From a virus (lineage: Duplodnaviria > Heunggongvirae > Uroviricota > Caudoviricetes), in the IMG/VR virus record IMGVR_UViG_2554235125_000005, positions 1-29,539 of that record: DNA of 29,539 nt. One strand, 5' to 3'. Shown here piece by piece: positions 5,184 through 25,308 of this stretch. Position 1 is the first letter of the stretch, and every line of letters starts with the position of its first letter. The notes under the pieces are model-generated. The model did not search any database and was not told the origin of the DNA. It saw only the letters and a list, made by a program, of their open reading frames with translations. Made by a program: the position numbers and the translations under genes.

Positions 5184-6362
5184 TTAGCTGTTGACCGATT
5201 CGGCCAGATTCACCAGATATTTATCGGTGATTCGCTGGCGCAGGGTCAGGCTTTCCAGTGGTGGAACCGGCGTATAGTCGTAGTCGATATACAGTTTCCC
5301 GGCCTTGAGGGTTTCCTTATCGTTCGATTCCTCGTCGAACCAGCATTCACCGTCCACGATGTAGCCATTTGATTTCAGCTCGCGGAATTTGGCGTTAATA
5401 CCGTCGACAATGTCACGGATAAGCGATGCGGTGATGGGCTTATCGACCGCCCACATGTGCGCCTCGGCCATCGTGTCGGCCAGAACCTGCGCGGTGCGGG
5501 TGTAGTTCTCAAACAGGAAAAGCGGGTCATCAGAGCAGGTACGGTTACCCCAGAAGCGGAAACCATCCTTGCGCACCAGCGTTGTGACCCCGGCCTCGTT
5601 GAGCAGGTCAGCATCGGTACCGGATGCCTGCAAATCCCAAAAGACTGACGCACTGATGCCGGTGACACCCTGCACGCCGACGTTAGACAGGGTTTTGTGC
5701 CAGCCGACGGTTTGGTCGATGTAGGCACGCAGACCGAGTGCGCGAGCGGTGGCGTAGGCCGTTGCGGTGGCGTTCGCGGTGGTGTCCCATGCGAGGAAGT
5801 CAGGCCAGATAACCATCAGTTCGCGCTGACTGAAATTCTCGCGATAGGCTATCGCTTCGGAAATGGTCTTACAGCCCCATGCGCTGACGTAACCAAATGC
5901 GCGTAGGCTGATACAGACCGACGCAAGTGCGACTGCGACCTCTTTGGTATCGAGACCCGGCACGCCGAGAATGCGCGGCTTAACGCCGGTGACCGCTTCG
6001 GCAGTCAACAGCGCCTTGATACCGGTGTATTTACCGTTCTCATCCGTGCCGCCGATGATGTTAGAAATGGTTTGCGCTTCCGCGTCGTCTCCGGCACCTT
6101 CTGCAACACGCACAACAACGGTGACTGGTTTTGACTGGTCGGCGATAGCCTGCAGGGAGGCAGACAGCGTGCCTTTTTTACCGGCTTTCGCAATGGCGCT
6201 CTGCACATTGGTAATCAGTACCGGCTCGTTGAGGGGAAATGTCGCGGCATCTGCATCGCTGGCCGTACAGACCATACCGACGATTGCAGTCGCGACCGTA
6301 GAAATAACACGCGTACCGTCATTGATTTCGATGACCTGCGTGCCGTGGTGAAAATCACTCAT
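5184..6362 (-). CDS. FI: Contractile tail sheath protein
   Basis: 392-aa ORF (MSDFHHGTQVIEIND...) first in the FI-FII-E-T-U-D operon. GGAG Shine-Dalgarno 8 nt upstream. Confidence 0.85.
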   Translation of the reverse strand: MSDFHHGTQVIEINDGTRVISTVATAIVGMVCTASDADAATFPLNEPVLITNVQSAIAKAGKKGTLSASLQAIADQSKPVTVVVRVAEGAGDDAEAQTISNIIGGTDENGKYTGIKALLTAEAVTGVKPRILGVPGLDTKEVAVALASVCISLRAFGYVSAWGCKTISEAIAYRENFSQRELMVIWPDFLAWDTTANATATAYATARALGLRAYIDQTVGWHKTLSNVGVQGVTGISASVFWDLQASGTDADLLNEAGVTTLVRKDGFRFWGNRTCSDDPLFLFENYTRTAQVLADTMAEAHMWAVDKPITASLIRDIVDGINAKFRELKSNGYIVDGECWFDEESNDKETLKAGKLYIDYDYTPVPPLESLTLRQRITDKYLVNLAESVNS

Positions 6363-6460
6363 CCGGTTAACTCCGTGGTTAGTGGGCGAGTGTTATTGTC
6401 CTGGCTGGTCTTGAGAGGGGCTATTTGTCGGCGATGGATAGCCGATGGCACATAAACAAA

Positions 6461-6489
6461 TCATAAAAAAGACGGGCATTAGCCCGCCC
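6461..6489 (-). terminator. Candidate intrinsic terminator downstream of the tail-fibre operon (minus strand)
   Basis: Plus strand reads AAAAAAGACGGGCATTAGCCCGCC. On the minus strand this is a 5-bp GC stem (CGGGC/GCCCG) with a 4-nt loop followed by UCUUUUUUAU, right after the G stop codon. Confidence 0.5.
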
Positions 6490-6493
6490 AGCA

Positions 6494-7090
6494 TTACTCC
6501 GGTTTAACCGGCCACTCGATACTCGGTGCCGTGGAGGTGTCGACCGCGTTCAGCGCCTGAATGTATTTCATCCATGCAATCAGGCTGACTTTGTCATCGT
6601 CGCTGATGATGCCGAGCTGCAGCTCGGTTTGCCACAGGCTGACAGTTCTTTGCGCCTCGGCCAGCAATGAGTTTTTTTTCTGTTGAGCCGCTGCAACCTG
6701 GCCGCTTTTCTGCGCATCCGCATCTGTAACCCACTCGTTACCATTCCAGCGGTCATAAGGCGTCAGCGGCTCGATGGTGGTCACATTATCAGGGTAATCA
6801 CCAAGCCCTGTCATCTCGACAGGCTGGCCGGTTTCGGTGTCATACACAGTCTCGCCCCGGTGGTCGACAACATAATCCCACCCATCAAGGCTGGCCGTGC
6901 GGCAAATGGCAAAACCTTCTTTCTCATCGACCGGCGCATCGGTACAGGAATTGGCAGGAATCCCCACGCCTACTGCAAGATACTCTGTGGAAGTCGACAG
7001 AAACTTGCGCGTTTTCCCGTCGTAGTTATAAACAGTCATATCACCGGCTTTAGTGGTAATGCCGATTTTATTCAATATCGCTTTCGCCAT
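6494..7090 (-). CDS. G: Tail fibre assembly protein
   Basis: 198-aa ORF immediately downstream of the tail fibre gene, the position of the P2 tail-fibre assembly gene G. Confidence 0.65.
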   Translation of the reverse strand: MAKAILNKIGITTKAGDMTVYNYDGKTRKFLSTSTEYLAVGVGIPANSCTDAPVDEKEGFAICRTASLDGWDYVVDHRGETVYDTETGQPVEMTGLGDYPDNVTTIEPLTPYDRWNGNEWVTDADAQKSGQVAAAQQKKNSLLAEAQRTVSLWQTELQLGIISDDDKVSLIAWMKYIQALNAVDTSTAPSIEWPVKPE

Positions 7091-8103
7091 TATGCTGCCC
7101 TCACGACGTAATTAAATGCGATGTTGCGCGGTCGCGTTTCAGATGCAGTCCTGGTGACGGTACTTGAGTCCAGTTTTGCTCTGCTGTAAGGAGTTAGTTC
7201 ATTAGTAACAGTAACCAAACCGTCAGTCCCTGTTCTGTTAACTCCTGAAAAAGCCCCATCAACATAAGTGAACAATCCGTTTCCGCTATAACCAAATGAG
7301 CCGACGATAGGCTGCATTGCATCTGCCTGAGTTGCGAGTAACAACCGCCCGCTGTCAACCCCGCGCCCGTCATCCCAACCGCGAATAAACTCACCACGTA
7401 AATCAGGCAAATAACCAGACGGAAATACAGCAGCCAGCCCCGGATATTTCACCTTATCAAATGCCGCGCCGTTGCATTTCAGCCAGCCTGTCGGCGGCGT
7501 TGCTGACGGGAAAGGAAGTGGTATACCTACCGGCGTATATTTCGCAATATCGGCGATTTGCAGGTATTGCGAATGCGGGTTCAAGGCGGTGAGGTGTGCG
7601 GCCAGCAGGCTATCGGCATAGACTTTGACCTCAATAACCTTATCGTCGACATACTGACGCGTTGCCAGTACGACCGACGGGTCGATTTTCAGGGTGATGG
7701 CCGATGTGTTCGACACAATCAGAATCATGCGAATGGTCTGTGTGCGGCCGCTTCCCTCCTGCAATTGCGGCTTGTAGGTCTCCGGGCAGTTCGCCACGGC
7801 AATCAGAATGCCGTCGTCATCGTAGAGACCAATCTCGCGGATCCAGAAACCGCCCTCATTCTCGGGAATAATCTGTTCCGCGATAATCTGGTTGGTATTG
7901 GCCGGGTCAACGGTCAGCAGGTTCAGTGGCGCGATGCGCTTTTGGTTAATGAGCTTCGTCTGCGCCGGGTCAGGGGTCAGCAGCGTACCATTCGCATCAC
8001 CGACGGCCATCTGCGTCAGGTTGAGTCTGGTACCGAGAGCCGCCGCGTTCGCCAGCCGCGCCGCGCCCTGATTGGTCAGAATGGCAAAATATTTTGCGGT
8101 CAT
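7090..8103 (-). CDS. H: Tail fibre protein (short H-type with collar-like domain)
   Basis: 337-aa ORF between baseplate gene I and the fibre assembly gene. C-terminal half carries GWLKCNGAAF...YPGLAAVFPSGYLPDLRGEFIRGWDDGRG, which resembles the phage tail-collar fibre motif. Confidence 0.7.
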   Translation of the reverse strand: MTAKYFAILTNQGAARLANAAALGTRLNLTQMAVGDANGTLLTPDPAQTKLINQKRIAPLNLLTVDPANTNQIIAEQIIPENEGGFWIREIGLYDDDGILIAVANCPETYKPQLQEGSGRTQTIRMILIVSNTSAITLKIDPSVVLATRQYVDDKVIEVKVYADSLLAAHLTALNPHSQYLQIADIAKYTPVGIPLPFPSATPPTGWLKCNGAAFDKVKYPGLAAVFPSGYLPDLRGEFIRGWDDGRGVDSGRLLLATQADAMQPIVGSFGYSGNGLFTYVDGAFSGVNRTGTDGLVTVTNELTPYSRAKLDSSTVTRTASETRPRNIAFNYVVRAA

Positions 8104-8708
8104 GCGTTCACTCTCAGGTTATCAATCAAATGGATGGCCGAGGCCGGGTAATATTCACCGCCGACGACAATTTCCTCGGGGGTGTAGGGGTAAACGGTCA
8201 GCGCGTCGCCGTCGTAGCATCCCGCGCCGACGTACAGCTCGCCGGTTGCACTCAGACTGATAGCCAGCCCCGTCAGGTGACGACTTGCCGGTTTGGCGTC
8301 TTCAATCAGGCGCTCAAGTTCCTGATACATTTCGTCAGTGATGCCGCTGTCGAGCACACCGACAACGAGACGGAATGTTCCAGGCTCCTCATTGAGTTGC
8401 CACCATTCGCGCACCTCAATCAGAAAGCCGAGCGGCTCGACCACCCGACGTAATGCGCTGATGGTGCCTTTGTGCTGATGGACGAAAAACGAGGATGCGC
8501 AGACGCTGCGCTTTGTCGCCTCCGGCCACTTTTCATCCCACCGGTCGACCGATAGCGCCCACGCCAGATACGGCAGCAGGTTTACCGGGCAGGTACGCCA
8601 GTTCCACAGGGTGCGCAACGGTACCGGTACGCGCTGAATCTCAGAGAGTGCAGTAGCGGCGGCAACTTCCAGCGGCGACGAGCCAACGGGTAACAGCCGG
8701 TCACTCAT
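8100..8708 (-). CDS. I: Baseplate protein I
   Basis: 202-aa ORF in the V-W-J-I-H order of P2-like phages. Confidence 0.75.
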   Translation of the reverse strand: MSDRLLPVGSSPLEVAAATALSEIQRVPVPLRTLWNWRTCPVNLLPYLAWALSVDRWDEKWPEATKRSVCASSFFVHQHKGTISALRRVVEPLGFLIEVREWWQLNEEPGTFRLVVGVLDSGITDEMYQELERLIEDAKPASRHLTGLAISLSATGELYVGAGCYDGDALTVYPYTPEEIVVGGEYYPASAIHLIDNLRVNA

Positions 8709-9609
8709 CCGAGCCCCCGATAGTTATCTGATACTCGGTGCAGTTCGACGCCTGCGACTTACTCAGCACAATATCGGCCTGCGGTGATGCCAGCTCGACA
8801 CGCTGCACCCCCTCAACATGCAGCGCCGCGTAAATGGCTGACAGGCGAATATCTCGCCCGAGGCGGTGCTGCGCACTGATGTAGCTCTGCAGCGTCTGCT
8901 CTGATGCCTGCCTGATGGGCTCAGATTCCGGGCCGGGGTAGACGTAGAGCGTCGCGTCAATCTGGTACGGCACAATCTCGGCTGACTGGACAGTCACCCG
9001 GTCGGCCACGGGGCGCACATCTTCGGCATTCAGCGATTTATCAACAATCGCCAGTAAATCAGGGCTGGCGGTGCCGTCACCCTCCCGGGATAACACTGTA
9101 ATCGTCACGCAGGCTGGCGACGGGCTTGCGACCGAAACGTCAGCGACCCGCCCGTCGGCGCTGCGACCGTGATACTCGTATGCTCCGACCGGTCCCGCCA
9201 CGCTCAGGCCCTCAAACGCCTGTTGCGTGCGCAGACGCAGGTCGGTATCGGATTCCATAACGGCAGGTGTCGGCGGAATGGTGGTGTCATCCGCCGGGGT
9301 GATGGTCAGGCGTTCGGTATTGTTGTTCCCGGCCACGACGTCGAGGTCGTTACCGGCGGAATAGGCCAGCGTCACCGCCTGCGCGGCTTCGTTTACCCGC
9401 TGACGCCAGATAACTTCACGGTAGGCGTTTTCCTGCAGCAGTTTAACAATCGGCTCCGACTCAAGTGCCAGTGTCCGGGCAATGGCCTCCTGCTGGTCTT
9501 CGGGATAGAGCGAAATCAGTATCGCTTTGCGCTCCGCAAGGATGGTTTCATAGTCCAGTTCCTCAACCACGTCGGGAACGGGTAACTGACTCAGGTCAAC
9601 GGTTGCCAT
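8701..9609 (-). CDS. J: Baseplate assembly protein J
   Basis: 302-aa ORF; P2 gpJ position and size. Confidence 0.8.
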   Translation of the reverse strand: MATVDLSQLPVPDVVEELDYETILAERKAILISLYPEDQQEAIARTLALESEPIVKLLQENAYREVIWRQRVNEAAQAVTLAYSAGNDLDVVAGNNNTERLTITPADDTTIPPTPAVMESDTDLRLRTQQAFEGLSVAGPVGAYEYHGRSADGRVADVSVASPSPACVTITVLSREGDGTASPDLLAIVDKSLNAEDVRPVADRVTVQSAEIVPYQIDATLYVYPGPESEPIRQASEQTLQSYISAQHRLGRDIRLSAIYAALHVEGVQRVELASPQADIVLSKSQASNCTEYQITIGGSDE

Positions 9610-9615
9610 AGTGAT

Positions 9616-9963
9616 TTAACTCAGTGAAACAGTGGTTGAAACTGACGCACCAGTATCGGTACGCATCCCGGTAATATCGACATACATTTCGCCAGCGCCG
9701 CCGGTCTCAAAGCTGATAGCGGTAAGCCTGATGCGCGGCTCCCACTTCTGGATAGCCGAATAGCACGCCACCATAATTTGCAGCCTGAGCGCCGGGTTTT
9801 GCGGCATATCAATCAGCGTCGACAGCAGCGAGCCATATTCACGACGCATCACCCGCGAACCGACCGGCGTCAGCAGTATGTCGCGCATGCTCTGGCTGAT
9901 GTGCTCAGTGTCGCTGATACCGAGTCCGGTATTTCGATTCATACCCTGATAGCGCACTGTCAT
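9616..9963 (-). CDS. W: Baseplate protein W (gp25-like)
   Basis: 115-aa ORF between V and J; P2 gpW size and position. Confidence 0.8.
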   Translation of the reverse strand: MTVRYQGMNRNTGLGISDTEHISQSMRDILLTPVGSRVMRREYGSLLSTLIDMPQNPALRLQIMVACYSAIQKWEPRIRLTAISFETGGAGEMYVDITGMRTDTGASVSTTVSLS

Positions 9964-10595
9964 ATCGGCGCCCCCGTCGTCCCGCCGCTGTCGCCGGGGT
10001 GTTTATGGGTATGGAGTACCTTGCCATTTGACGACAGTGACCCGCCGGTATGCTCAATGTTGCCTTTCATCGTGCCGCCTTTTTGCACCTCAAGCGTCGT
10101 CGTCGTTAGCTTGTTGGTGCAAATCACCTCCGGGGTGTCGAGGGTGATACTGGTTGAGGCTTTCACCAGTACCAGCGGTACGGTTGCGATGATGGATTCC
10201 GATGCCGTCACGTCGGCCGTTTTTATGCCGCTGACCGTCAGCGCACTGGTCTCGGGCTCGTACTCAATGACCGCACCATCAGGGAAAACCACATGCCACG
10301 CATCCGCCGAGGCTGACGGGGCGGGGTTATCGTCGGAGAAAATACCAGGCAACACGAAAGCGGTATCAAGCTCGCCACCGATTGCCAGCAGCAGAACCTG
10401 CTCACCGACCGAGGGAGCCCACCACGTCCGCGAACGACCGGCTCGGGTGGTCAGCCAGTTCAGCCATGTAGTCTGGATCCCGCCGCTTTGTACGCGGCAC
10501 AGCCCCTGCACGGTATCGACCTCAGTCACTACGCCTGAGCGGATGAGGTTGCGAATCGCACGCGCTAGCTCTTGGATTGAAGATAGTGTTTTCAT
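9960..10595 (-). CDS. V: Baseplate spike / assembly protein V
   Basis: Track ORF is 246 aa; the internal Met (MKTLSSIQELARAIRNLI...) gives about 211 aa, matching P2 gpV length and N-terminus as I recall them. Start refined by eye. Confidence 0.75.
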   Translation of the reverse strand: MKTLSSIQELARAIRNLIRSGVVTEVDTVQGLCRVQSGGIQTTWLNWLTTRAGRSRTWWAPSVGEQVLLLAIGGELDTAFVLPGIFSDDNPAPSASADAWHVVFPDGAVIEYEPETSALTVSGIKTADVTASESIIATVPLVLVKASTSITLDTPEVICTNKLTTTTLEVQKGGTMKGNIEHTGGSLSSNGKVLHTHKHPGDSGGTTGAPI

Positions 10596-10723
10596 TTCGC
10601 TATCATTCACCAAGCAAACAATCATTCCAAACTGGATCAAATGTCTGATCTTTGGTACAAAAAGCATTTGGCAAGGTAATCCTGTCGATAGCAAAGACAT
10701 ATGTGTTATTGAGCGAGGGAATT
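10596..10723. promoter_or_regulatory. Divergent promoter region: late promoter for V operon (minus) and promoter of the cargo cassette (plus)
   Basis: Intergenic between divergently oriented V and the AT-rich cassette. No promoter elements confidently identified. Confidence 0.3.
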
Positions 10724-11236
10724 GTGAACTTTAATGCTTTAAAACCCAGCATTTCGTCTGCTGCTATAGGTGGTGCGGGCTTCTTATCTGCATTAGTAAC
10801 TATGTTTGTAAACGTTCAATCTGAGCTATCGGTTAAATGGTTTATATTTTTAACATGGTTAAGCATAACTATTTTTATTCTTTTGATTAAGCGTATTGAT
10901 GATCTTGAAAAAGAGAACGGAAAATCTTTTCCTGCACCATATGAAAAGCCAATTAAAATATTAAGTGGTGATGGGCTTATTCTGATAAAGAAAAACGCCA
11001 ATTTCTCTAACAATATAATAGTTGGCTGCTATCTTATTAATGATGAATTTGAAAAGATCGCATTTTCAGCACACGTCTATCACATCCAGGAAAATTTATT
11101 GCAGTTAAAAATAATTGATAGTTATTGTACAGAAGAAGAGCTTGATTTAATAAATGCAAAGGGTGCAAGCTCAATGTTAATTGTCAGGCCTAACATACCT
11201 TACGAATTACTCGAAAAGTTTGGAGAGAGAGACTAA
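10724..11236 (+). CDS. Hypothetical membrane protein (two predicted TM helices plus about 110-aa soluble domain), cargo gene 1
   Basis: GTG start preceded by GAGGGA. Hydrophobic stretches SISSAAIGGAGFLSALVTMFV and WFIFLTWLSITIFILLI. AT-rich codon usage unlike flanking phage genes. No family recognised. The track ORF begins at a TTG at 10652 without a Shine-Dalgarno. Confidence 0.45.
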   Translation: MNFNALKPSISSAAIGGAGFLSALVTMFVNVQSELSVKWFIFLTWLSITIFILLIKRIDDLEKENGKSFPAPYEKPIKILSGDGLILIKKNANFSNNIIVGCYLINDEFEKIAFSAHVYHIQENLLQLKIIDSYCTEEELDLINAKGASSMLIVRPNIPYELLEKFGERD

Positions 11237-11658
11237 TGTCTGAACTATATGATGCAAAAATTATTCATATCAACAACGATTTCACTAAATTTGTTATCAA
11301 TAAGGGTGAGAATGGAAATATACGTGACGGGATGGTATTTTTAATTTATTCACTTGGGGAAAATATTATAGATCCTGACACAGGAATAGATTTAGGCCGA
11401 CTTGAAATAGTAAAAGGTGAAGCTATTGTACATCACATACAAGAGAAAATGACTACATTAATTTCGCGTGAATTCATAGAAGAGCCAGTAAAGGAAGAAA
11501 CCATATATAAACGTGAGATTTTCGCGCATCGCAGATTAATTAGCGATCTCTATGAGGGGGTCCGTACTCCTGCGAAAAAAGTGAGAGTCTCCCCAGAGAA
11601 AAAAATCAAGCCTCTTTTAGATGTAAAAATAGGGGATTATGTTAGAAGAGTGAAGTGA
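11236..11658 (+). CDS. Hypothetical soluble protein (140 aa), cargo gene 2
   Basis: ATG overlaps the gene 1 stop (TAATG), implying translational coupling. GGAGAGAGAGA upstream. AT-rich. Possibly a small beta-barrel-like fold (IRDGMVFLIY and KIGDYVRRV segments), but this is a guess. Confidence 0.5.
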   Translation: MSELYDAKIIHINNDFTKFVINKGENGNIRDGMVFLIYSLGENIIDPDTGIDLGRLEIVKGEAIVHHIQEKMTTLISREFIEEPVKEETIYKREIFAHRRLISDLYEGVRTPAKKVRVSPEKKIKPLLDVKIGDYVRRVK

Positions 11659-11686
11659 TTAAACAATCACTTCATACATAGTACTG

Positions 11687-12136
11687 TTAACCGTGAAGAT
11701 GGGAAATAATAATATTCAATATGTTGTTATTCTCCTCATGTGAAGCGCCGAGCAACGGGCGCGCCTCGTACTGCACATCCCGGGTGTTACGGTTTGGCCG
11801 GTCTTTTAGGCCGTACTGATGCACCCGCGCCATGCGCTGCACCTTGCTGGTAAAGTCCACCACCGCCGCACTGTCGCTGCCTTTGGCTTTCATAAAGCGA
11901 TTGGTGCGCAGTTTGGCGAACATTTCACGCTTAATCCGACCTTTCTTGCCCCGCACCGGCTGGCGCTTTCGTGCCGAATACGGAGTGCCGTCGGGTGCCT
12001 GCTGGCGCTTGATGCGCTGCTGCTGACTGGTACGCAACTTTTTCGCAATCTCAGCCGCCATTTGCCGACGCGCCGCCGGTGACAGGCTGGCAATCAGACC
12101 GGCAAGACGTTCCTGCAGTGCGGTTAACTCACTCAT
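11687..12136 (-). CDS. S: Tail completion / virion morphogenesis protein S
   Basis: 149-aa ORF with the conserved core PVRGKKGRIKREMFAKLRT...VQRMARVHQYGLKDRPNRN of the P2 gpS family, as I recall it. Confidence 0.75.
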   Translation of the reverse strand: MSELTALQERLAGLIASLSPAARRQMAAEIAKKLRTSQQQRIKRQQAPDGTPYSARKRQPVRGKKGRIKREMFAKLRTNRFMKAKGSDSAAVVDFTSKVQRMARVHQYGLKDRPNRNTRDVQYEARPLLGASHEENNNILNIIISHLHG

Positions 12137-17620: not shown

Positions 17621-19390
17621 ATGACCATTTCCACCGATACAACCTTGTTGCATGACCCGCGACGGCAGGCATCGCTGCTTTACTGGCAGGGTTTTTCCGT
17701 GCCACAGATTGCCGAAATGCTGCAGGTCAAGCGCCCGACCGTGCAGAGCTGGAAGCAGCGCGACTGCTGGGACGGTATCGCACCGATTTCCCGCGTTGAA
17801 AGCAGCCTTGAGGCGCGCCTGATTCAGCTCATCGCCAAGCCGCAAAAGTCAGGCGGCGACTTCAAAGAGATTGACCTGCTCGGGCGACAAATTGAGCGAC
17901 TGGCGCGCGTTAACCGCTACAGCCAGACCGGCAACGAGGTCGACCTTAACCCCAATGTTGCCAATCGCAACAAGGGCGAGCGTAAGAAGCCGAAAAAGAA
18001 TTTTTTCAGCGATGAGGCTATCGAGAAACTGGATGAATTATTTTTCGACCAGTCTTTCGAGTACCAGTTGCAGTGGTACCGTGCAGGGCTGGAACACCGT
18101 ATTCGCGACATTCTCAAATCCCGACAGATTGGCGCGACGTTCTATTTTTCCCGCGAGGCACTGCTGCGCGCGCTCAAGACCGGTCATAACCAAATCTTTC
18201 TGTCGGCCAGTAAAACGCAGGCTTACGTGTTCCGCGAATACATCATCCAGTTTGCGCGACTGGTCGACGTCGACCTGACAGGCGACCCGATTGTCATCGG
18301 CAACAACGGCGCAAAGCTGATTTTTCTCGGTACCAATTCCAACACCGCGCAGAGCCATAACGGCGACCTGTATGTCGATGAAATATTCTGGATCCCGAAT
18401 TTTCAGAAGCTGCGCAAAGTCGCCTCGGGCATGGCCTCTCAGAAGCACCTGCGCTCAACCTACTTTTCTACACCTTCCACGCTGGCGCACGGCGCTTACC
18501 CCTTCTGGTCTGGCGAGCTGTTCAACAAGGGGCGCAGCCGTATTGCCGACCGCATCGAAATCGACATCAGTCACAACGCGCTCGTCGGTGGCCAGCTCTG
18601 CGACGATGGCCAGTGGCGGCAGATTGTCACCATTGAGGACGCCCTTGCCGGTGGCTGCACCCTGTTCGACCTCGACCAGCTCAAACGCGAAAACAGTGAT
18701 GAGGATTTTAAAAACCTGTTTATGTGCGAGTTTGTCGACGATAAAGCGTCGGTATTCCCGTTCGAGGAGCTGCAGCGCTGCATGGTCGACGTGATGGAAG
18801 AATGGGAGGACTTTGCCCCGTTCGCCGACCATCCGTTCGGCTCGCGTCCTGTCTGGGTTGGCTACGACCCGTCACACACCGGCGACAGTGCCGGGTGCGT
18901 CGTACTCGCACCGCCGGTGGTCTCGGGTGGCAAGTTCCGCATGCTGGAGCGTCAGCAGTGGAAAGGCATGGACTTTGCTGCGCAGGCAGAGGGCATCCGC
19001 AAACTGACCGAGAAATACAACGTCGAATACATCGGCATTGACGCAACCGGCCTCGGTCTCGGCGTGTTCCAGTTGGTGCGCTCATTCTACCCGGCGGCGC
19101 GCGGCATCCGTTACACGCCTGAGATGAAAACCGCGATGGTGCTCAAGGCAAAAGACACCATTCGCCGTGGCTGTCTGGAGTATGACGCCGGTGCGACCGA
19201 CGTCACGCAGTCGTTTATGTCCATCCGCAAAACTATGACCAGCAGCGGGCGCAGCGCCACGTACGAGGCCAGCCGCACCGAGGAAGCCAGTCACGCCGAT
19301 ATCGCATGGGCGACTATGCACGCCCTGTTAAACGAACCGCTTTCCGCCGGTAGCGGCATGCAGCCTAAATCTATTCTGGAGTTCAACTAA
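17621..19390 (+). CDS. P: Terminase large (ATPase) subunit P
   Basis: 589 aa, P2 gpP size; divergent from O and followed by Q. Confidence 0.9.
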   Translation: MTISTDTTLLHDPRRQASLLYWQGFSVPQIAEMLQVKRPTVQSWKQRDCWDGIAPISRVESSLEARLIQLIAKPQKSGGDFKEIDLLGRQIERLARVNRYSQTGNEVDLNPNVANRNKGERKKPKKNFFSDEAIEKLDELFFDQSFEYQLQWYRAGLEHRIRDILKSRQIGATFYFSREALLRALKTGHNQIFLSASKTQAYVFREYIIQFARLVDVDLTGDPIVIGNNGAKLIFLGTNSNTAQSHNGDLYVDEIFWIPNFQKLRKVASGMASQKHLRSTYFSTPSTLAHGAYPFWSGELFNKGRSRIADRIEIDISHNALVGGQLCDDGQWRQIVTIEDALAGGCTLFDLDQLKRENSDEDFKNLFMCEFVDDKASVFPFEELQRCMVDVMEEWEDFAPFADHPFGSRPVWVGYDPSHTGDSAGCVVLAPPVVSGGKFRMLERQQWKGMDFAAQAEGIRKLTEKYNVEYIGIDATGLGLGVFQLVRSFYPAARGIRYTPEMKTAMVLKAKDTIRRGCLEYDAGATDVTQSFMSIRKTMTSSGRSATYEASRTEEASHADIAWATMHALLNEPLSAGSGMQPKSILEFN

Positions 19391-19391
19391 A

Positions 19392-20438
19392 ATGGGTAAG
19401 CAAAAATCCCGTAAAGCCGCTGCGCAGAAGGCCAGCAAGCCACAACAACTTACCGCCAGCGCACCGCCAAAAACGACAGCGTTCACCTTCGGCGAGCCGG
19501 TGCCGGTACTCGATAAGCGCGATATTCTGGATTACGTCGAGTGCATCAGTAACGGCAAATGGTACGAGCCGCCAGTAAGCTTCTCCGGGCTGGCAAAGAG
19601 CCTGCGCTCTGCCGTGCATCACAGCTCACCGATTTATGTTAAGCGCAACGTACTCGCAAGCACCTACATTCCGCACCCGTTGCTATCCCGTCAGGATTTC
19701 AGCCGTTTTGCACTCGACTATCTGGTTTTCGGCAATGCCTTTCTTGAGCAGCGCAACAGCGTCACCGGCCAGTTAATCAAGCTACTGGCCTCACCGGCCA
19801 AATACACCCGGCGCGGGGTCGACGACTCGATTTTCTGGTTTGTGGAAAACTTCACGCGGCCGCATGAGTTCGCGCCTGATACCGTGTTTCACCTGCTTGA
19901 GCCCGACATTAATCAGGAAATTTACGGCCTGCCTGAATATCTCAGCGCGCTTAATTCCGCCTGGCTGAATGAAGCTGCGACGCTGTTCCGCCGCAAGTAT
20001 TACCAGAACGGAGCGCATGCTGGTTACATCATGTATGTGACCGACCCGGCGCAGAGCGCGACCGACGTCGAATCGCTGCGCGAGGCGATGCGCAACTCGA
20101 AAGGGCTCGGCAACTTTAAGAACCTGTTTTTCTACGCACCCGGCGGAAAACCGGACGGCATCAAAATCGTGCCACTGAGCGAGGTCGCCACAAAGGATGA
20201 CTTTTTCAACATTAAGAAAGCCAGCGCTGCCGACCTGATGGACGCGCACCGCGTGCCGTTCCAGCTTATGGGCGGCAAGCCCGAGAATATCGGTTCACTC
20301 GGTGACGTTGAGAAGGTGGCAAAGGTATTCGTTCGTAACGAGCTGTCACCCCTGCAGGACAGGTTCAGGGAGGTAAACGACTGGCTCGGCATGGAGGTCA
20401 TCAAGTTTAAAGAGTACACCCTCGAAAACCCGGAATAA
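19392..20438 (+). CDS. Q: Portal protein Q
   Basis: 348 aa, P2 gpQ size, immediately after P. Confidence 0.9.
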   Translation: MGKQKSRKAAAQKASKPQQLTASAPPKTTAFTFGEPVPVLDKRDILDYVECISNGKWYEPPVSFSGLAKSLRSAVHHSSPIYVKRNVLASTYIPHPLLSRQDFSRFALDYLVFGNAFLEQRNSVTGQLIKLLASPAKYTRRGVDDSIFWFVENFTRPHEFAPDTVFHLLEPDINQEIYGLPEYLSALNSAWLNEAATLFRRKYYQNGAHAGYIMYVTDPAQSATDVESLREAMRNSKGLGNFKNLFFYAPGGKPDGIKIVPLSEVATKDDFFNIKKASAADLMDAHRVPFQLMGGKPENIGSLGDVEKVAKVFVRNELSPLQDRFREVNDWLGMEVIKFKEYTLENPE

Positions 20439-20480
20439 CTCCCCTCAAGCCGCCATTATGGCGGCTATTACATAAAAAAC

Positions 20481-21704
20481 TTAAACTTCGTCTTTACTAT
20501 TTATCATTCTGATATAACTAGGCATACGAGGATCTGAAATTTTATATACCCCTCTAGCTGCCTTTGTAAGGATCGCTCCTTTATCAGCCCTAGTAAAACG
20601 CCCAATATAGTTACTCATGTGATAGTTACTTAATGAAATTCCCGTATCTTCTCGAATTTGGGTAATCCATTCTTGAATGGTAAATTTATTATCTTTGAAT
20701 TTGGCTGCTGCATAAAGTATTGATGGATAAACATCAGTCCTGGATGAAGTAACTGCGTTCTCATAGTCTCTTTTAAGTTGTCCCTCGGTGTTTACTACTG
20801 CTCGCCTCAAAGCTTCAGGAAGAATGTCGGAATTTACTTCGCTTTTACCAGATGATAATACTATATCTGCAGATTCCTTTCCTATAAGATGCGTGAAATA
20901 TGGAAAACCATTGCTAATTTCAACTATAGAGTTTTTAACGTCACTACTAAATGTTATACCCAAGCCACGCTCGCCAGTCTCAATTATTTCATGTAAATAT
21001 TTATCTTCAATTCGAGAGAGTTGAATTTCATGGAGGCATCTGTTCACAGAAGGATGACCTGCTATCAACGAAGCACCGTCACTGGAAATGCCAACTAATA
21101 AAATCTTCAAAGGACTATTGGAATCGCTAAGTTGTTTAACAAACTCAGCGACATCATGCTTAACGTCATCACTGACAACATCAAATTCATCTATTAAAAG
21201 TATTGCATTCAATTCTTCAAGCGCAAAACAGGCTTTACTTGGAGTAAGATCTTCTTTTTCTATCGTGATTTTCTCTTCGGCAGAAACGTCCGCTCTAAAT
21301 AATTTCAAAACATTAAGGCCAACACCTGCTTTTTTAGTAGTCTCTCTTTTATTTGCGGCATATTCACTATCAATAAATATAGCTGGCCTTGCAATAATAT
21401 CTTTGAATTTTGTTTTTTTATCACATCGCACTACAAAAATATTACTAGGTAACACACCTTCATTTTTCCCTCCCTCTAAAGTAGATAAGGCGAGCGAGCT
21501 TTTCCCAATCCCTCTCTCTCCATAAATCATACAATGCTTGCCATCAGTAGTTAAGGTATCGAGGATATGTTCCACCTCGTTATTACGTCCTTTCAAATGG
21601 GTAGGTGCCTCAATAGGTTTAGAGGGTGTAAAATATAAATCAACATTTTTAATTTTATTTTTTTTTGCTTTAAATTTACTGAATATGCTGCTAGTAGTCG
21701 TCAT
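20481..21704 (-). CDS. P-loop NTPase of unknown function (AAA+/STAND-like with C-terminal winged-helix-like region), cargo gene
   Basis: 407-aa ORF with Walker A GERGIGKS and Walker B ILLIDEFD about 100 residues apart. No ABC signature. AGGA Shine-Dalgarno. Strongly AT-rich codon usage. Sits between portal gene and cos. Confidence 0.6.
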   Translation of the reverse strand: MTTTSSIFSKFKAKKNKIKNVDLYFTPSKPIEAPTHLKGRNNEVEHILDTLTTDGKHCMIYGERGIGKSSLALSTLEGGKNEGVLPSNIFVVRCDKKTKFKDIIARPAIFIDSEYAANKRETTKKAGVGLNVLKLFRADVSAEEKITIEKEDLTPSKACFALEELNAILLIDEFDVVSDDVKHDVAEFVKQLSDSNSPLKILLVGISSDGASLIAGHPSVNRCLHEIQLSRIEDKYLHEIIETGERGLGITFSSDVKNSIVEISNGFPYFTHLIGKESADIVLSSGKSEVNSDILPEALRRAVVNTEGQLKRDYENAVTSSRTDVYPSILYAAAKFKDNKFTIQEWITQIREDTGISLSNYHMSNYIGRFTRADKGAILTKAARGVYKISDPRMPSYIRMINSKDEV

Positions 21705-21821
21705 TTCCGCATCCTATTGCAAAAAGTTAACTTATTAAAAGAAAAATTCAGAGTAAGTGCAATACCTATTATTCGGAGCTTGTCACAAGATTCACTACTG
21801 AAGTGTAACCGCTGGCGCGCA

Positions 21822-21840
21822 ATGCTTTCCCCGCCACGCC
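21822..21840 (-). other. cos: cos-type cohesive-end site (19-mer)
   Basis: Plus strand ATGCTTTCCCCGCCACGCC is the reverse complement of GGCGTGGCGGGGAAAGCAT, which matches the P2/186 19-nt cohesive end as I recall it. Expected position for a prophage (between Q and the A side). Confidence 0.6.
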
Positions 21841-21999
21841 TGCCCGCTTTATGGGGCGGTTTTAATGCAGTTGCATGACTACTCTGGATCCGCTTCAGCT
21901 CTGGCGGCGCACGGCCAGAACGGGCAATCCCGGCGCATGCAAAACCATGCACCTGTTGCATGCACGACTAAAAAACGGGGTAATCGCGGAAAAATGGCA

Positions 22000-22025
22000 T
22001 AAAAAACCGGCATTCACGGTGCCGG
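22000..22025 (-). terminator. Candidate intrinsic terminator ending the SOS-operon transcript before cos (minus strand)
   Basis: Plus strand AAAAAACCGGCATTCACGGTGCCGG. On the minus strand a 6-bp GC-rich stem (CCGGCA/TGCCGG), 7-nt loop, then UUUUUUAU. Confidence 0.45.
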
Positions 22026-22119
22026 TTTGGTGTCAATCTGGTAACCAGCTAACGCCTCGCGGGGCTCGTTGTTCAACCCCGCCAGCACTGAAAGCAAGTT
22101 TCAGCACCGGCGGCGTTTG

Positions 22120-22356
22120 CTATCGTCGGCGGGGCGGCGGAATAATCGGACCTCTCGCCGGTGTAAACGCCTCAATTTTCGGATTACTAATATCGTACAG
22201 CCTGCCGTAATTATCCCTGACTATTTCGGCGCACCCGACCAGCTCGGCGGGTGACAAATTCTCATTGACCATTATCCGCTGCAGGCGATGAACGATAGCC
22301 ATTAACTTAATATTTCTTGTCTGGTGCTGCGGTATTTCACTTGGTAGTCGATGCAT
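22120..22356 (-). CDS. Hypothetical protein (78 aa)
   Basis: ORF with GAGGGTGA upstream of its ATG and a Pro/Arg-rich C-terminus. Flanked by two related 60-bp repeats. No family recognised; could be non-coding. Confidence 0.3.
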   Translation of the reverse strand: MHRLPSEIPQHQTRNIKLMAIVHRLQRIMVNENLSPAELVGCAEIVRDNYGRLYDISNPKIEAFTPARGPIIPPPRRR

Positions 22357-22555
22357 ACTATCACCCTCGATGAATTTTAATCAGTGCCGTCAAAACGCCA
22401 CTATAAAACCCTCTCAGATCATGCTTCATTCATCACGGGCGTGTCATCAATAGCACATTGAGAAGTTTTGAAAGGCAGGACTAAAGCCTCGTGGGCTCGT
22501 TACTCAACCCCGTCGACGCAAAAAGCTAGTTTTTGCGCCAACACGGTTATCATGT

Positions 22556-22786
22556 TTAACGCCAGCTATCGTCTTCCCAAATCTCTTGTAATATGCCGCC
22601 TAATGTTTCTTTGTCTGCCTCTTTATCGAATCCGATAACCTCTACACCAGTCATTGACCCTTTCTTGACGTTAACTTTTATTGTAGGAAAAACGCATTGT
22701 ACTCGATGTGTTATTTCATTCTGAAAAGCATCAATGATCTGTTGCCCTAATTTTTGTTCTTTATCCAACGTGATATTGATTCTCAT
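22556..22786 (-). CDS. dinI: DinI-like protein (possible C-terminal module of a Tum-type antirepressor)
   Basis: 76 aa, MRINITLDKEQ...GGILQEIWEDDSWR; resembles E. coli DinI in length and in the N-terminal MRI.. and C-terminal ILQE.WE..D.W pattern, from memory. Downstream of a LexA box. Confidence 0.7.
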   Translation of the reverse strand: MRINITLDKEQKLGQQIIDAFQNEITHRVQCVFPTIKVNVKKGSMTGVEVIGFDKEADKETLGGILQEIWEDDSWR

Positions 22787-23085: not shown

Positions 23086-25308
23086 TTACTCTGATATTGG
23101 TTTTGATGCTTCAGCTATCGCAGCAACACGATTAAGGATTTTCCTGGCTTTAGCCTCATGCGATGGTGCTGTGGAAAATATTTCTCCTTTGGCCGTTCCG
23201 CGTAGCCATTTACCATCAAAACAACTTTTACCACCGGCCATCAAGTGCAGAGCTTCGCCCCGGCTGATATTAATGCCGGTTGTCAGATGTATCTCTTCGA
23301 TAGTTTTCGCTATAGCTGCGTTTTGCTCATCCGTTCCGTGTATGAATTTTCGCCGTGCTGCTGGCTTTTGCTTCCTGAGTCGGTTGGTTAGCTCTCGTCT
23401 TTCGCGTCGACTCAGGGGCTTTGTCAAATCCAGTACCGGTGGATCGTTTTCGCTTCCCGTACAGTTATTGACAGAACTCCGAGGGACGGCTTTGCCGTCC
23501 TGAAGGTCAACGGCCAAATCAACAGCATGCTTCGGAACAATCTTCCACTGAGTGAGTCGGGTTAATATCGGGCTCCCTGCACCTATGGAGGAATCGTAGA
23601 CCCCCTTAATACATACCGTTTCCTCACCGTACTGATTAAGCTCGGTACGCGGTTCATACAGTGTGCGCACCTGTAAATCATCGCGACGGACAAACGGTCC
23701 ACCCTGCGCATTAACATACCCAGCCCAGTCACCAGCGTCGGCGGCATCATGGACGGCGGCAAACTCAACGCTCAGTCCGTGCGCGGTTTCGGTATCAGCG
23801 AGGCGACGCAACTCACGGTAAACCGTCACCGGCGCACCACCGATAAACTGAAACTGACGGATGTGCCAGCGCGAAGCCCATGCTGAAACGGCGGGGGCTG
23901 TCTCTTTCAGCAGTTCACCACTTTCATCATCGGTTTCACCATCGAGAGCATAACCGTCGATATTTTTTGAGATGTATTTAGCAACATAGCCGGTTGCGCT
24001 GCCTTTCTCCGGGTCAATGGACTCGGCGTGGAAACGTGCTTTTTTGGCCTTATCGCTTTTCAGTTCGTGGCGGTCTTCTTTACACGCGTATTTACGTACG
24101 ATGGAGCGAACATATTCAACATCTTCCGGCAGCATGAACATCAGCATGTGCCAGTGTGGAGTACCGTCGTGATGGGGCTCGGCAACACGAATACCGAAAA
24201 TACGGACATCTTCCCGATGCAGTTTGGCACGGATACGCGCCCAGATACCGGTTAGATAGTTTTGCGTGTCAGCCGGGCTGGCACCGCTCCATTTGCTGTT
24301 ACGGTAACCGGCTTTAGTCGTGGCGTGATATTTCGACGGCGCGGTCAGAGTGTAAAACTCACCGACATAACCGAGCTCATTACAGATGTTTTCAAACCCA
24401 CGGATGCGAGTCATGAGCTCACAGCGGCGAATCGCAGGGTTAGCAACTGAGCCATCATATTTTTCAATCAGGCTGATACGGTTGCCGTCTTCGTCTTCGA
24501 GATCCAGACCTTTGAGAAATTCACGAGTTCGGCGCTTTTGTTCACGCCAGTCAGTCACGCAGTTTTTACTCGCATAGGTGTTTTTTTTCTTGCTGACGTT
24601 GCCGACTGCAATTTGCAGGTGTTCGCGCCACGTAGCTGCAACTCGGCGCAAACGACCACGCCACCACCCATCGTTAAACATCTTGGCGATAGCCGGTGCG
24701 ATTTCATCCGCGCCGACATATTTTTTTGCAACCCGATCCCAATGGGGTGGGATAACGTTGAATTGGAGGGAAATAAAGCCAGCACGATTATACCAGGTGT
24801 ACAGCGTTTTAAGCTCGCCGAATCCGTGGTCATTAATGTTGGCAAGTTCACCACGAATGAAATCAGCAATATCGGCGGCCAACAGGTCAACATCAGCGCG
24901 CGACATATCCGGGAGGCGGTTATATCGGGCGACCATATTAACCATGCGTGACGCCAGATATTGCATAAGCTGGGTATCAAAATGACTTCCAAAAACAGAG
25001 GTTGATACCTTGCTGTTGATACCCGCGCATTCGTATTTTTTTGCGACCAATTCAAGACGCGGCAATGCCTTTTTGCAGAAGCTGATCAAAAAGGCATTGG
25101 CTCGTTGAATACCCTGATTTTGCTCCAGCACTGCAGCAGTGCGATAAACATCTAACCGCACGCAGTCGGGCTGGAGAGAAAGCACCTTTTTCGCATGCAG
25201 CAAAGCCGCGAACATACGGTCGCGGCGATGCTGTTGCTCATAAGTAAGGTATGGGCTGGAGATTGCCGACCGTGGGACGTTCCACGGATAAGCGAATTGA
25301 ACAGCCAA
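23086..25308 (-). CDS. A: Replication initiation protein A (rolling-circle nickase)
   Basis: 740 aa, near the P2 gpA size as I recall it. Contains HWHMLMF and GYVAKYISK motifs resembling the metal-binding and catalytic-tyrosine motifs of rolling-circle initiators. Confidence 0.85.
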   Translation of the reverse strand: MAVQFAYPWNVPRSAISSPYLTYEQQHRRDRMFAALLHAKKVLSLQPDCVRLDVYRTAAVLEQNQGIQRANAFLISFCKKALPRLELVAKKYECAGINSKVSTSVFGSHFDTQLMQYLASRMVNMVARYNRLPDMSRADVDLLAADIADFIRGELANINDHGFGELKTLYTWYNRAGFISLQFNVIPPHWDRVAKKYVGADEIAPAIAKMFNDGWWRGRLRRVAATWREHLQIAVGNVSKKKNTYASKNCVTDWREQKRRTREFLKGLDLEDEDGNRISLIEKYDGSVANPAIRRCELMTRIRGFENICNELGYVGEFYTLTAPSKYHATTKAGYRNSKWSGASPADTQNYLTGIWARIRAKLHREDVRIFGIRVAEPHHDGTPHWHMLMFMLPEDVEYVRSIVRKYACKEDRHELKSDKAKKARFHAESIDPEKGSATGYVAKYISKNIDGYALDGETDDESGELLKETAPAVSAWASRWHIRQFQFIGGAPVTVYRELRRLADTETAHGLSVEFAAVHDAADAGDWAGYVNAQGGPFVRRDDLQVRTLYEPRTELNQYGEETVCIKGVYDSSIGAGSPILTRLTQWKIVPKHAVDLAVDLQDGKAVPRSSVNNCTGSENDPPVLDLTKPLSRRERRELTNRLRKQKPAARRKFIHGTDEQNAAIAKTIEEIHLTTGINISRGEALHLMAGGKSCFDGKWLRGTAKGEIFSTAPSHEAKARKILNRVAAIAEASKPISE

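Follow-up and report, generated by a model that had tools for sequence, protein, structure and literature searches.

The window analysed here is the whole stretch of 29,539 nucleotides (nt) of the IMG/VR virus record IMGVR_UViG_2554235125_000005 (Caudoviricetes), and all coordinates given without a locus name refer to it. This DNA belongs to a 186-like prophage, which encodes CI, CII, Fil and a DinI-like protein and is integrated beside yfiB in Escherichia coli TK3888. The gene under study, which encodes an nSTAND1-type nucleoside triphosphatase (NTPase) of 407 amino acids (aa), lies between the portal gene Q and the cohesive-end site (cos), in a region with the following layout:

17621..19390, plus strand: terminase gene P
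19392..20438, plus strand: portal gene Q
20448..20466, no strand assigned: terminator-type hairpin AGCCGCC-ATTAT-GGCGGCT directly after Q, seen in the sequence and kept in all slot variants of the alignment
20471..21807, no strand assigned: AT-rich cargo module of about 1.34 kb (35.5% guanine-cytosine, GC) that fills the Q-cos slot, common only to the related loci L011 and L001 and other carriers
20481..21704, minus strand: nSTAND1-type NTPase gene with ATG start, 407 aa, stop codon included (RefSeq WP_019842449.1)
21705..21815, minus strand: upstream region of 111 bp inside the cargo, with the ribosome-binding site AGGA 7 nt before the ATG
21816..21878, no strand assigned: conserved cos core, common to all slot variants as invariant alignment columns
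21822..21840, minus strand (reads 21840->21822): cos 19-mer, seen in the sequence as GGCGTGGCGGGGAAAGCAT
23086..25308, minus strand: replication gene A

P and Q thus stand to the left of the NTPase gene and A to its right, and the gene is convergent with Q, just as the first-pass annotation had described for an AT-rich gene for a 407-aa P-loop protein between Q and cos. The GC content is 35.9% for the gene and 35.5% for the block 20471-21808, compared with 52.2% for the whole window. That this is a real gene is indicated by 416 homologues of uniform length, and comparison with a 96%-identical variant gave a ratio of nonsynonymous to synonymous substitution rates (dN/dS) of 0.105, which shows that it is under purifying selection. 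The 111-bp upstream region is conserved with the Enterobacter and the second E. coli variants, and no credible non-coding RNA or repeats were found in the cargo block 20471..21807. The 17-mer core of the cos 19-mer occurs once in the window and was matched in 0 of 100 shuffles; GGCGAGGCGGGGAAAGCAC stands at the equivalent position of the P2-type locus L004, and the record of the sequenced relative Escherichia phage Midge ends inside the 19-mer.

Eleven related loci were retrieved, cos was located in each of them, and the flanks were compared by alignment. The distance from the end of Q to cos and the content of this slot were as follows:

L004 and L005 (P2-type) and L009 (186-type): 172-179 bp, slot empty
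L006: 470 bp, DUF2188 gene, matching the PADLOC candidate PDC-S16
L002 and L007 (split in L010): 1,304 bp, one 334-aa protein
L003 and L008: 1,682 bp, two proteins of 241 and 240-272 aa
The window, L001 and L011: 1,386 bp, NTPase gene

The statement of the first-pass annotation that Q lies right next to cos in P2 therefore agrees with the 172-179 bp of the P2-type and empty 186-type prophages, as against 1,386 bp here, and its question whether related prophages differ at this junction can be answered positively, since they hold the DUF2188 gene, the 334-aa gene, the two-gene pair or nothing. An identical portal protein (WP_000517961.1) is encoded in seven of these loci. Five Q-cos states exist among close 186-type relatives, and four of them occur behind this one portal protein: the NTPase gene (L011), the 334-aa gene (L002, L007), the two-gene pair (L003, L008) and the DUF2188 gene (L006). 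The empty-slot locus L009 encodes a different portal protein, a 93%-type relative. Because different cargo stands behind an identical portal, the cargo has been swapped on a constant backbone. In the alignments, homology among the slot variants ends at about 20469-20470, just past the hairpin at 20448-20466, which makes the hairpin the left boundary of the slot and the last backbone sequence; the right boundary lies 7-15 bp from the cos 19-mer, as the cos core is conserved mostly on its A side and the Q side is free for cargo up to approximately that distance. The region between genes A and Q (the gpA-gpQ hotspot) thus includes a separate sub-slot on the side of cos that faces the portal gene, and cassette exchange in it reaches from the portal terminator to 7-15 bp short of the cohesive-end sequence.

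The NTPase gene is also rare. Of 5,426 complete E. coli genomes, four contain its DNA, and in these RefSeq names the product 'nSTAND1 domain-containing NTPase' or 'AAA family ATPase'. A query consisting of Q, the cargo and cos (window 19392-22400) matched 1,641 E. coli genomes, four of which carry the gene, and none of the 119 sequenced phages that match the P and Q genes of the window has it; the closest of them show 96% identity to the window in these two genes. The match of Yersinia phage PP516623 to the cos region stops 164 bp from its match to Q. These data bear on the possibility, already raised in the first-pass annotation as the one that would overturn its view, that the protein is a conserved packaging or replication accessory factor present in all related phages. 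The gene adjoins both cos and the portal gene, encodes an ATPase, and co-diverges with terminase and portal in four genera (see below), all of which would suit such a role. However, P2-type prophages, many prophages of the 186 type and viable sequenced phages with 96% identity in P and Q all have an empty slot, and other cargo occupies it on an identical backbone. Given its absence from the 119 phages, its rarity in E. coli and its replacement by other cargo, the gene does not encode a packaging or replication protein; this explanation, already contradicted by the comparative data, is extremely improbable. The NTPase gene is exchangeable cargo that the phage can dispense with.

The other occupants of the slot are candidates in their own right. 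The 334-aa protein is encoded at 2625-3629 of L002, and the pairs of 241 and 240 or 272 aa at 2578-4022 of L003 and 1378-2918 of L008; none of these proteins has a Pfam or PADLOC match. The DUF2188 protein matching PDC-S16 is encoded at 1386-1697 of L006, in the same Q-cos slot and next to a gene for the identical portal protein. A 96.6%-identical form of the NTPase itself is encoded at 5939-7093 of CP074296.1, a Salmonella enterica 'plasmid' of 30,037 bp, and the size of this record suggests a circular or excised copy of a similar 186-like phage.

The cos-proximal gpA-gpQ region of P2-like phages has been described as an anti-phage hotspot with 1,650 gene arrangements, whose contents include retrons, restriction-modification (R-M) systems, old/tin and newly validated systems (Rousset et al. 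2022, PMC9122126). A 2026 study confirmed the hotspot and found most untested genes from the corresponding P4 loci to be protective (PMC13586616). The NTPase gene, located between A and Q and next to cos, lies within this region, and its 96% variant WP_130553851 appears in one arrangement of Table S5A of the former study; the gene is thus already catalogued there, as 'hypothetical' (PMC9122126). The hotspot assignment of the first-pass annotation is borne out for the cos-proximal region as a whole, with one correction concerning P2 old and tin: these have the gpA-gpQ hotspot in common with the NTPase gene but lie on the A side of cos and not in the Q-cos interval. The present cassette resembles that P2 cargo in being an AT-rich, exchangeable single-gene ATPase cassette in the region by cos of a conserved backbone. 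On the other hand, P2 Old is an ABC-type ATPase with a TOPRIM nuclease, whereas the NTPase is encoded on the Q side, has no nuclease and possesses an ORC/STAND-type ATPase core. An OLD- or ABC-type ATPase was considered as a candidate and ruled out, in agreement with the first-pass annotation, by the lack of any AAA_15, AAA_21, ABC or Old-type match in Pfam or PADLOC.

The conserved elements of the protein were identified by a motif alignment of 32 homologues from Enterobacterales, Aeromonas, Bacteroidota, Desulfobacterota and metagenomes, in which invariance is to be understood as invariance among these sequences. All are encoded on the minus strand:

21495..21521, minus strand, codons 62-70: Walker A GERGIGKSS, with G62, R64, G65, G67, K68 and S70 invariant
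21180..21203, minus strand, codons 168-175: Walker B ILLIDEFD, with D172, E173 and D175 invariant
21027..21095, minus strand, codons 204-226: sensor-1/box VII-like stretch VGISSDGASLIAGHPSVNRCLHE, with V204, G205, H217, S219, R222 and C223 invariant
20886..20915, minus strand, codons 264-273: lid motif SNGFPYFTHL, with S264, G266, T271, H272 and L273 invariant and P268 nearly so
20484..20744, minus strand, codons 321-407: basic winged-helix domain (isoelectric point 9.6), ending in the invariant GxYxxxDPRMxS

The Walker A (GERGIGKS, residues 62-69) and Walker B (168-175) motifs are approximately 105 residues apart, which matches the earlier description of both, and a further conserved motif, FTPxxP...GR, precedes the P-loop. 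The sensor-1-like stretch contains the conserved motif VGIS...GHPSVxRC, and its invariant R222, just before strand 5, stands at the position of the AAA+ arginine finger and is a candidate for that function. The same stretch gave the only PDB sequence match outside the P-loop, to a Sir3/Orc1-type AAA+ domain (E 0.022), while the PDB profile search found no relative below E = 1e-3 and no Cdc6/Orc1 below E = 1. The lid motif has the consensus SxG(F/Y)PxFTHL in the alignment and falls in the lid helices of the structure model; we take it to be the GxP-type motif typical of STAND and PF01637 ATPases, a motif reportedly defined by Leipe and colleagues in 2004. The C-terminal GxYxxxDPRMxS may occupy a position analogous to that of the MHD motif of NLRs.

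The first-pass annotation could not assign the protein to a kind, which no longer holds. Pfam nSTAND1 (PF20703) was matched at 34.9 bits (gathering threshold 27.1), over profile positions 18-217 of 379 only, and was matched above threshold in all 32 aligned homologues; AAA_22 was matched at 33.5 bits (threshold 27). Below threshold were AAA_16, ATPase_2 (PF01637; 19.9 versus 33.2 bits) and ORC-CDC6-like (PF24389; 16.7 versus 27 bits, P-loop only), so that membership of the last family is not supported by sequence. An AlphaFold model, with a predicted local distance difference test score (pLDDT) of 87.4 and a predicted template-modelling score (pTM) of 0.81, was confident except for loop residues 119-149 and consists of an ATPase core, a helical lid and a C-terminal winged helix, the last of which the earlier description had recognised as winged-helix character. 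These parts account for all 407 residues, with neither an effector nor a repeat sensor domain in Pfam or the model. The order of P-loop NTPase, helical domain with GxP-type motif and winged helix is that of STAND proteins, and the model also has the ORC/Cdc6-type fold of AAA+ core, lid and C-terminal winged helix. The nearest folds were archaeal PF01637 ATPases and Cdc6/Orc1, with match scores of 17.3 for Cdc6/Orc1, 15-16 for ORC subunits and 14-15 for TnsC and MuB; weaker matches included RFC, plant NLRs and CED-4 (12.8-13.7), BrxC (13.6) and MalT (12.4), and a viral structure library gave only generic clamp-loader AAA+ matches. By its fold, the protein stands at the border of ORC/Cdc6, PF01637 ATPases and STAND proteins and is a bare nucleotide-switch module.

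This fold raises an alternative in which the protein has nothing to do with defence and is an ORC/Cdc6- or MalT-like DNA-transaction or regulatory factor, serving element maintenance or partition, replication control, or host or prophage transcription. The closest folds (Cdc6/Orc1, ORC subunits, TnsC, MuB, RFC, and also DnaA) and the basic winged helix favour it. However, none of the Pfam ORC/Cdc6 models reaches its threshold, and the DPRMxS motif is invariant across phyla, as would sooner be expected of a structural or nucleotide-sensing element than of one that recognises particular DNA sequences. In addition, the gene is missing from nearly all relatives, including all 119 phages that match P and Q. 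The protein differs from Cdc6/Orc1 initiators and from the DNA-bound AAA+ filaments TnsC and MuB in having a GxP motif in the lid in place of the sensor-2 arginine, and its gene is dispensable for the replicon. The comparison with the PF01637 ATPases PAB2304 (PDB 2qen) and SSO1545 (PDB 2fna) gave 15-18% identity, with the PF01637 threshold not reached, and these proteins have no assigned function either. Overall, a role in such DNA transactions appears unlikely.

Similarity to immune proteins is found on the other side of this border. Kaur et al. 2021 (PMC8195603) gave the name nSTAND1 to the NTPase at the centre of multidomain systems predicted to act against invaders. With these conflict systems, Avs, bNACHT and TIR-NLR proteins, the NTPase shares an nSTAND1-type core, the GxP-type lid motif and a winged helix after the NTPase domain, as well as the occurrence of its family in mobile elements and defence islands. 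STAND/NLR immune proteins, however, have approximately 800-2,000 aa, with an N-terminal effector (nuclease, TIR, SIR2 or protease) and C-terminal sensor repeats, whereas nearly all clusters of the present short family end with the winged helix, at a length of about 400 aa. The NTPase is accordingly a minimal nSTAND1 nucleotide switch, made of an ATPase core, a lid and a basic winged helix with no built-in effector or repeat sensor.

Among known defence systems, only sub-threshold partial matches to PDC-S59, mad8, DS8, DS41 and IetA were obtained, and none was accepted. The best, to PDC-S59, a PADLOC candidate for single-gene phage defence, scored 28.6 bits (E 1.8e-7), with residues 46-266 aligned to positions 28-249 of a profile whose length of 428 is similar; this match covers the ATPase half only, and the sequence comparison would make PDC-S59 a distant relative at best. 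In the library searched, no publication was found on WP_019842449, on PDC-S59 or on AAA_22 together with prophage defence, the NTPase is not listed in the DefensePredictor supplements, and neither a paper nor a curated defence model covering the short family of about 400 aa was found. The 'AAA_22' systems of the P4 table were considered as possible members of the same family and rejected, since they are long NLR-like proteins.

The family itself is large and widely distributed. An exhaustive profile search found 6,144 representatives of 50%-identity clusters at E<=1e-3, of which 1,416 reached E<=1e-30. Among the best 150 representatives listed, almost every one is 390-440 aa long, fragments aside. 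Among the longer members checked, extra Pfam domains were found only in P0124, a metagenomic protein of 1,191 aa in which a complete NLR-like protein with NB-ARC, DUF7779 and TPR (1-780) precedes a complete copy of the family (785-1188); this is probably the product of two adjacent genes joined rather than a true fusion. Enterobacter (L021), Pectobacterium (L022) and Citrobacter (L023) have P2/186-like prophages with a homologue in this Q-cos slot that is likewise convergent with Q, at 87%, 73% and 52% identity, respectively; the identities of NTPase, portal and terminase are, in the same order of genera, 87/79/85%, 73/74/75% and 52/62/62%. This pattern suggests co-divergence with the phage backbone across genera, in contrast to the rarity and replaceability of the gene within E. 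coli. GC contents of family genes are 33-41% in hosts of 45-59% GC.

In addition to P2-like prophages, the family occurs in various other contexts. In Klebsiella lambdoid prophages, a 58% homologue lies between the antiterminator gene Q and the holin/lysis genes, an arrangement also found in ten to twelve IMG/VR contigs, and a family gene adjoins an integrase in eight IMG/VR contigs. A 72% homologue is a solitary islet in Aeromonas chromosomes. One distant member is found inside a type I R-M operon (hsdM, AAA_15 ATPase, hsdS, family gene, hsdR) and another between an AAA_15/21 ATPase and GmrSD plus Mrr. Members are also present in Gordonia phage Cashline and in mycobacteriophage Kevin1 (Charlievirus, cluster N), in which the gene lies between the lysis cassette and the integrase/repressor, beside a HicB-like gene. 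This Kevin1 member, gp30, matches at full length (28% identity over 92%, E 1e-28), although it comes from a different host phylum and phage family than the window phage; the central variable region of cluster N phages, in which gp30 lies, reportedly encodes prophage-mediated defence (Dedrick and colleagues, 2017). Furthermore, the family is common in non-phage chromosomes over many phyla, archaea included. Clustering of the neighbours at 160 diverse loci revealed no neighbour family in more than 12 of them, the recurrent ones being phage backbone genes, integrases and an IS1-type transposase, and the lack of a recurrent partner indicates that the family is a stand-alone gene.

Defence genes are frequent near family genes, a qualitative observation for which no enrichment is claimed. 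PADLOC searches of the open reading frames (ORFs) within 2 kb of family genes in approximately 68 species revealed R-M enzymes, MADS components, IetA, AriA and PD-T4-6, and ORFs 4.5-8 kb away included AbiL, a type IV restriction endonuclease, AriA, GajA, a Pycsar cyclase and NsnB. Among the near-neighbour ORFs (L033-L112), three match each of mad8 (best E 9e-35), mad3 (8e-30) and IetA (3e-29) and two match mad2, counts that may overlap in the same ORFs or loci. The NTPase may be linked to such MADS/IetA-type ATPases, the window protein matching mad8 weakly (E 0.0017).

The proximity of the gene to cos has suggested another explanation, namely a counter-defence or anti-satellite factor that would neutralise host immunity, or hinder P4-like satellites that use the same cos and terminase. 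The gene stands directly beside cos, the only region common to P2 and P4 (PMC9122126), and it keeps slot and orientation in divergent P2-like phages; as is generally known, the variable regions of phages also hold anti-defence genes. Against this explanation, the family is common in non-phage chromosomes and also occurs in phage types without P4-like satellites. In addition, the gene runs in the direction of the lysogenic/early region and has the AT-richness of lysogenic-conversion genes, it is not among the early anti-defence genes, and no similarity to any known anti-defence protein was found. A role of either type is improbable.

The best explanation is that this part of the 186/P2-like prophage is a 'moron', a cargo cassette of one gene, complete in itself and placed in the gpA-gpQ hotspot. 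As to its function, the genomic context points to an anti-phage or superinfection-exclusion factor expressed in the lysogen, to which we assign a probability of roughly 0.55, with role, expression, trigger and output all inferred. In the mechanism proposed, the protein at rest would be monomeric and bound to nucleotide, its winged helix lying against the ATPase core. On infection, a protein or DNA structure of the phage could serve as the signal that permits ATP binding and oligomerisation, whereby the invariant R222 would complete the active site of the neighbouring subunit. The winged helices of the oligomer might then hold nucleic acid, or the oligomer might recruit a host factor, and the outcome would be that replication or packaging of the invader is blocked or that the cell is arrested.

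Several points weigh against an anti-phage function. Searches of PADLOC v2 and NCBIfam (June 2026) gave no full-length match of a defence hidden Markov model to the NTPase, and no phage-resistance phenotype was found in the literature for it or for the short family. The nearest folds are replication initiators and DNA-loading ATPases rather than immune proteins, and as there is no recognisable effector, the output step of the proposed mechanism is guesswork. Although the gene presumably has its own promoter in the 111-bp region upstream, a scan with the sigma-70 consensus gave no strong site there. Because the distal set at 4.5-8 kb also contains defence genes, it provides no valid background for the comparison with the set within 2 kb. 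In addition, the hotspot also holds toxins and, in about a quarter of cases, partition systems (PMC9122126), and a distant homologue of 463 aa (28.5% identity over 92% of the query) is encoded on Yersinia pestis CO92 pMT1 (L032 4947-6338), just downstream of parA/parB and near a RelE/Phd toxin-antitoxin pair. It is conserved on pMT1-type Y. pestis plasmids (63 Yersinia records). Finally, NTPase identity tracks that of portal and terminase, from which long residence in, and co-divergence with, some P2-like lineages would follow; this pattern in the sequences suggests something other than simple recent acquisition and rapid turnover.

The presence of partition systems in the hotspot and of parAB beside the pMT1 homologue, together with co-divergence and a fixed position and orientation beside cos in four genera, would also suit the DNA-transaction role discussed above. 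On the other hand, a role specific to one element is difficult to reconcile with a type I R-M operon, GmrSD/Mrr surroundings, the lambdoid Q-lysis slot and chromosomal islets. The family might also be an 'effector-less' immune STAND that, once it senses an invader, assembles on DNA in the manner of ORC, TnsC or MuB, and this assembly would itself be the weapon against competing phages or P4-type satellites. Such a switch would bind an origin, DNA ends or cos-type substrates and block replication or packaging without a nuclease, NADase or pore, which would explain why the gene has kept its place beside cos in divergent P2-like phages. This version is improbable, but if true, it would represent a new output logic for STAND immunity.

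STAND-type NTPases, the prophage hotspot and the existence of untested genes in it were already known; what is new is that the sensor and effector parts of characterised immune STANDs are absent. In contrast to the immune STANDs coupled to sensors and killers, a large cross-phylum family of about 400 aa consists of the switch and the winged helix alone, and cargo slots of no fewer than three unrelated types of temperate phage (P2-like, lambdoid and cluster-N), as well as R-M neighbourhoods, repeatedly contain it. If the protein is protective, it would show how a minimal STAND module can give immunity alone or through host factors, and one more compact system, made of a single gene, would join the catalogue. 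Without a role in defence, the family would still be a widespread, uncharacterised ORC-like DNA-transaction factor of mobile elements.

Several other features of the prophage and its relatives were observed. A second AT-rich block (window 10501-11700, GC 0.32-0.39) looks like another cargo slot of the prophage; it contains ORFs 10724..11236 (plus strand, 170 aa) and 11236..11658 (plus strand, 140 aa), opposite to the flanking baseplate/virion-morphogenesis genes, and for both of them Pfam and PADLOC gave no match. A 47-nt direct repeat on the A side of cos (22062-22108 and 22493-22539; 74% identical, with 19 of the first 22 nt the same and short hairpins inside) brackets a 78-aa ORF (22120..22356, minus strand) that has no family match, and the two copies resemble terminator or boundary modules, repeated on either side of a small cassette. 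Farther on, a DinI-like protein of 76 aa (Pfam DinI, 65 bits) is encoded at 22556-22786 on the minus strand, after a 60-aa ORF downstream of gene A, presumably at the position of the Tum antirepressor in 186-type phages. The A side also carries cargo in related loci, including a 739-aa AAA_13 ATPase in the P2-type L004 (4512-6731), which matches PADLOC PDC-S06 over its full length (E 8e-253) and also the PrrC model, and a Ser/Thr kinase in L003 (4465-5934). In the tail-fibre region between the sheath and baseplate genes (approximately 5200-10000), the TK3888 prophage (L001), otherwise nearly identical to the window, is longer by about 727 bp; window ORF 6494..7090 (minus strand) encodes a Caudo_TAP tail-fibre assembly protein, and TK3888 has a truncated recombinase pseudogene there.

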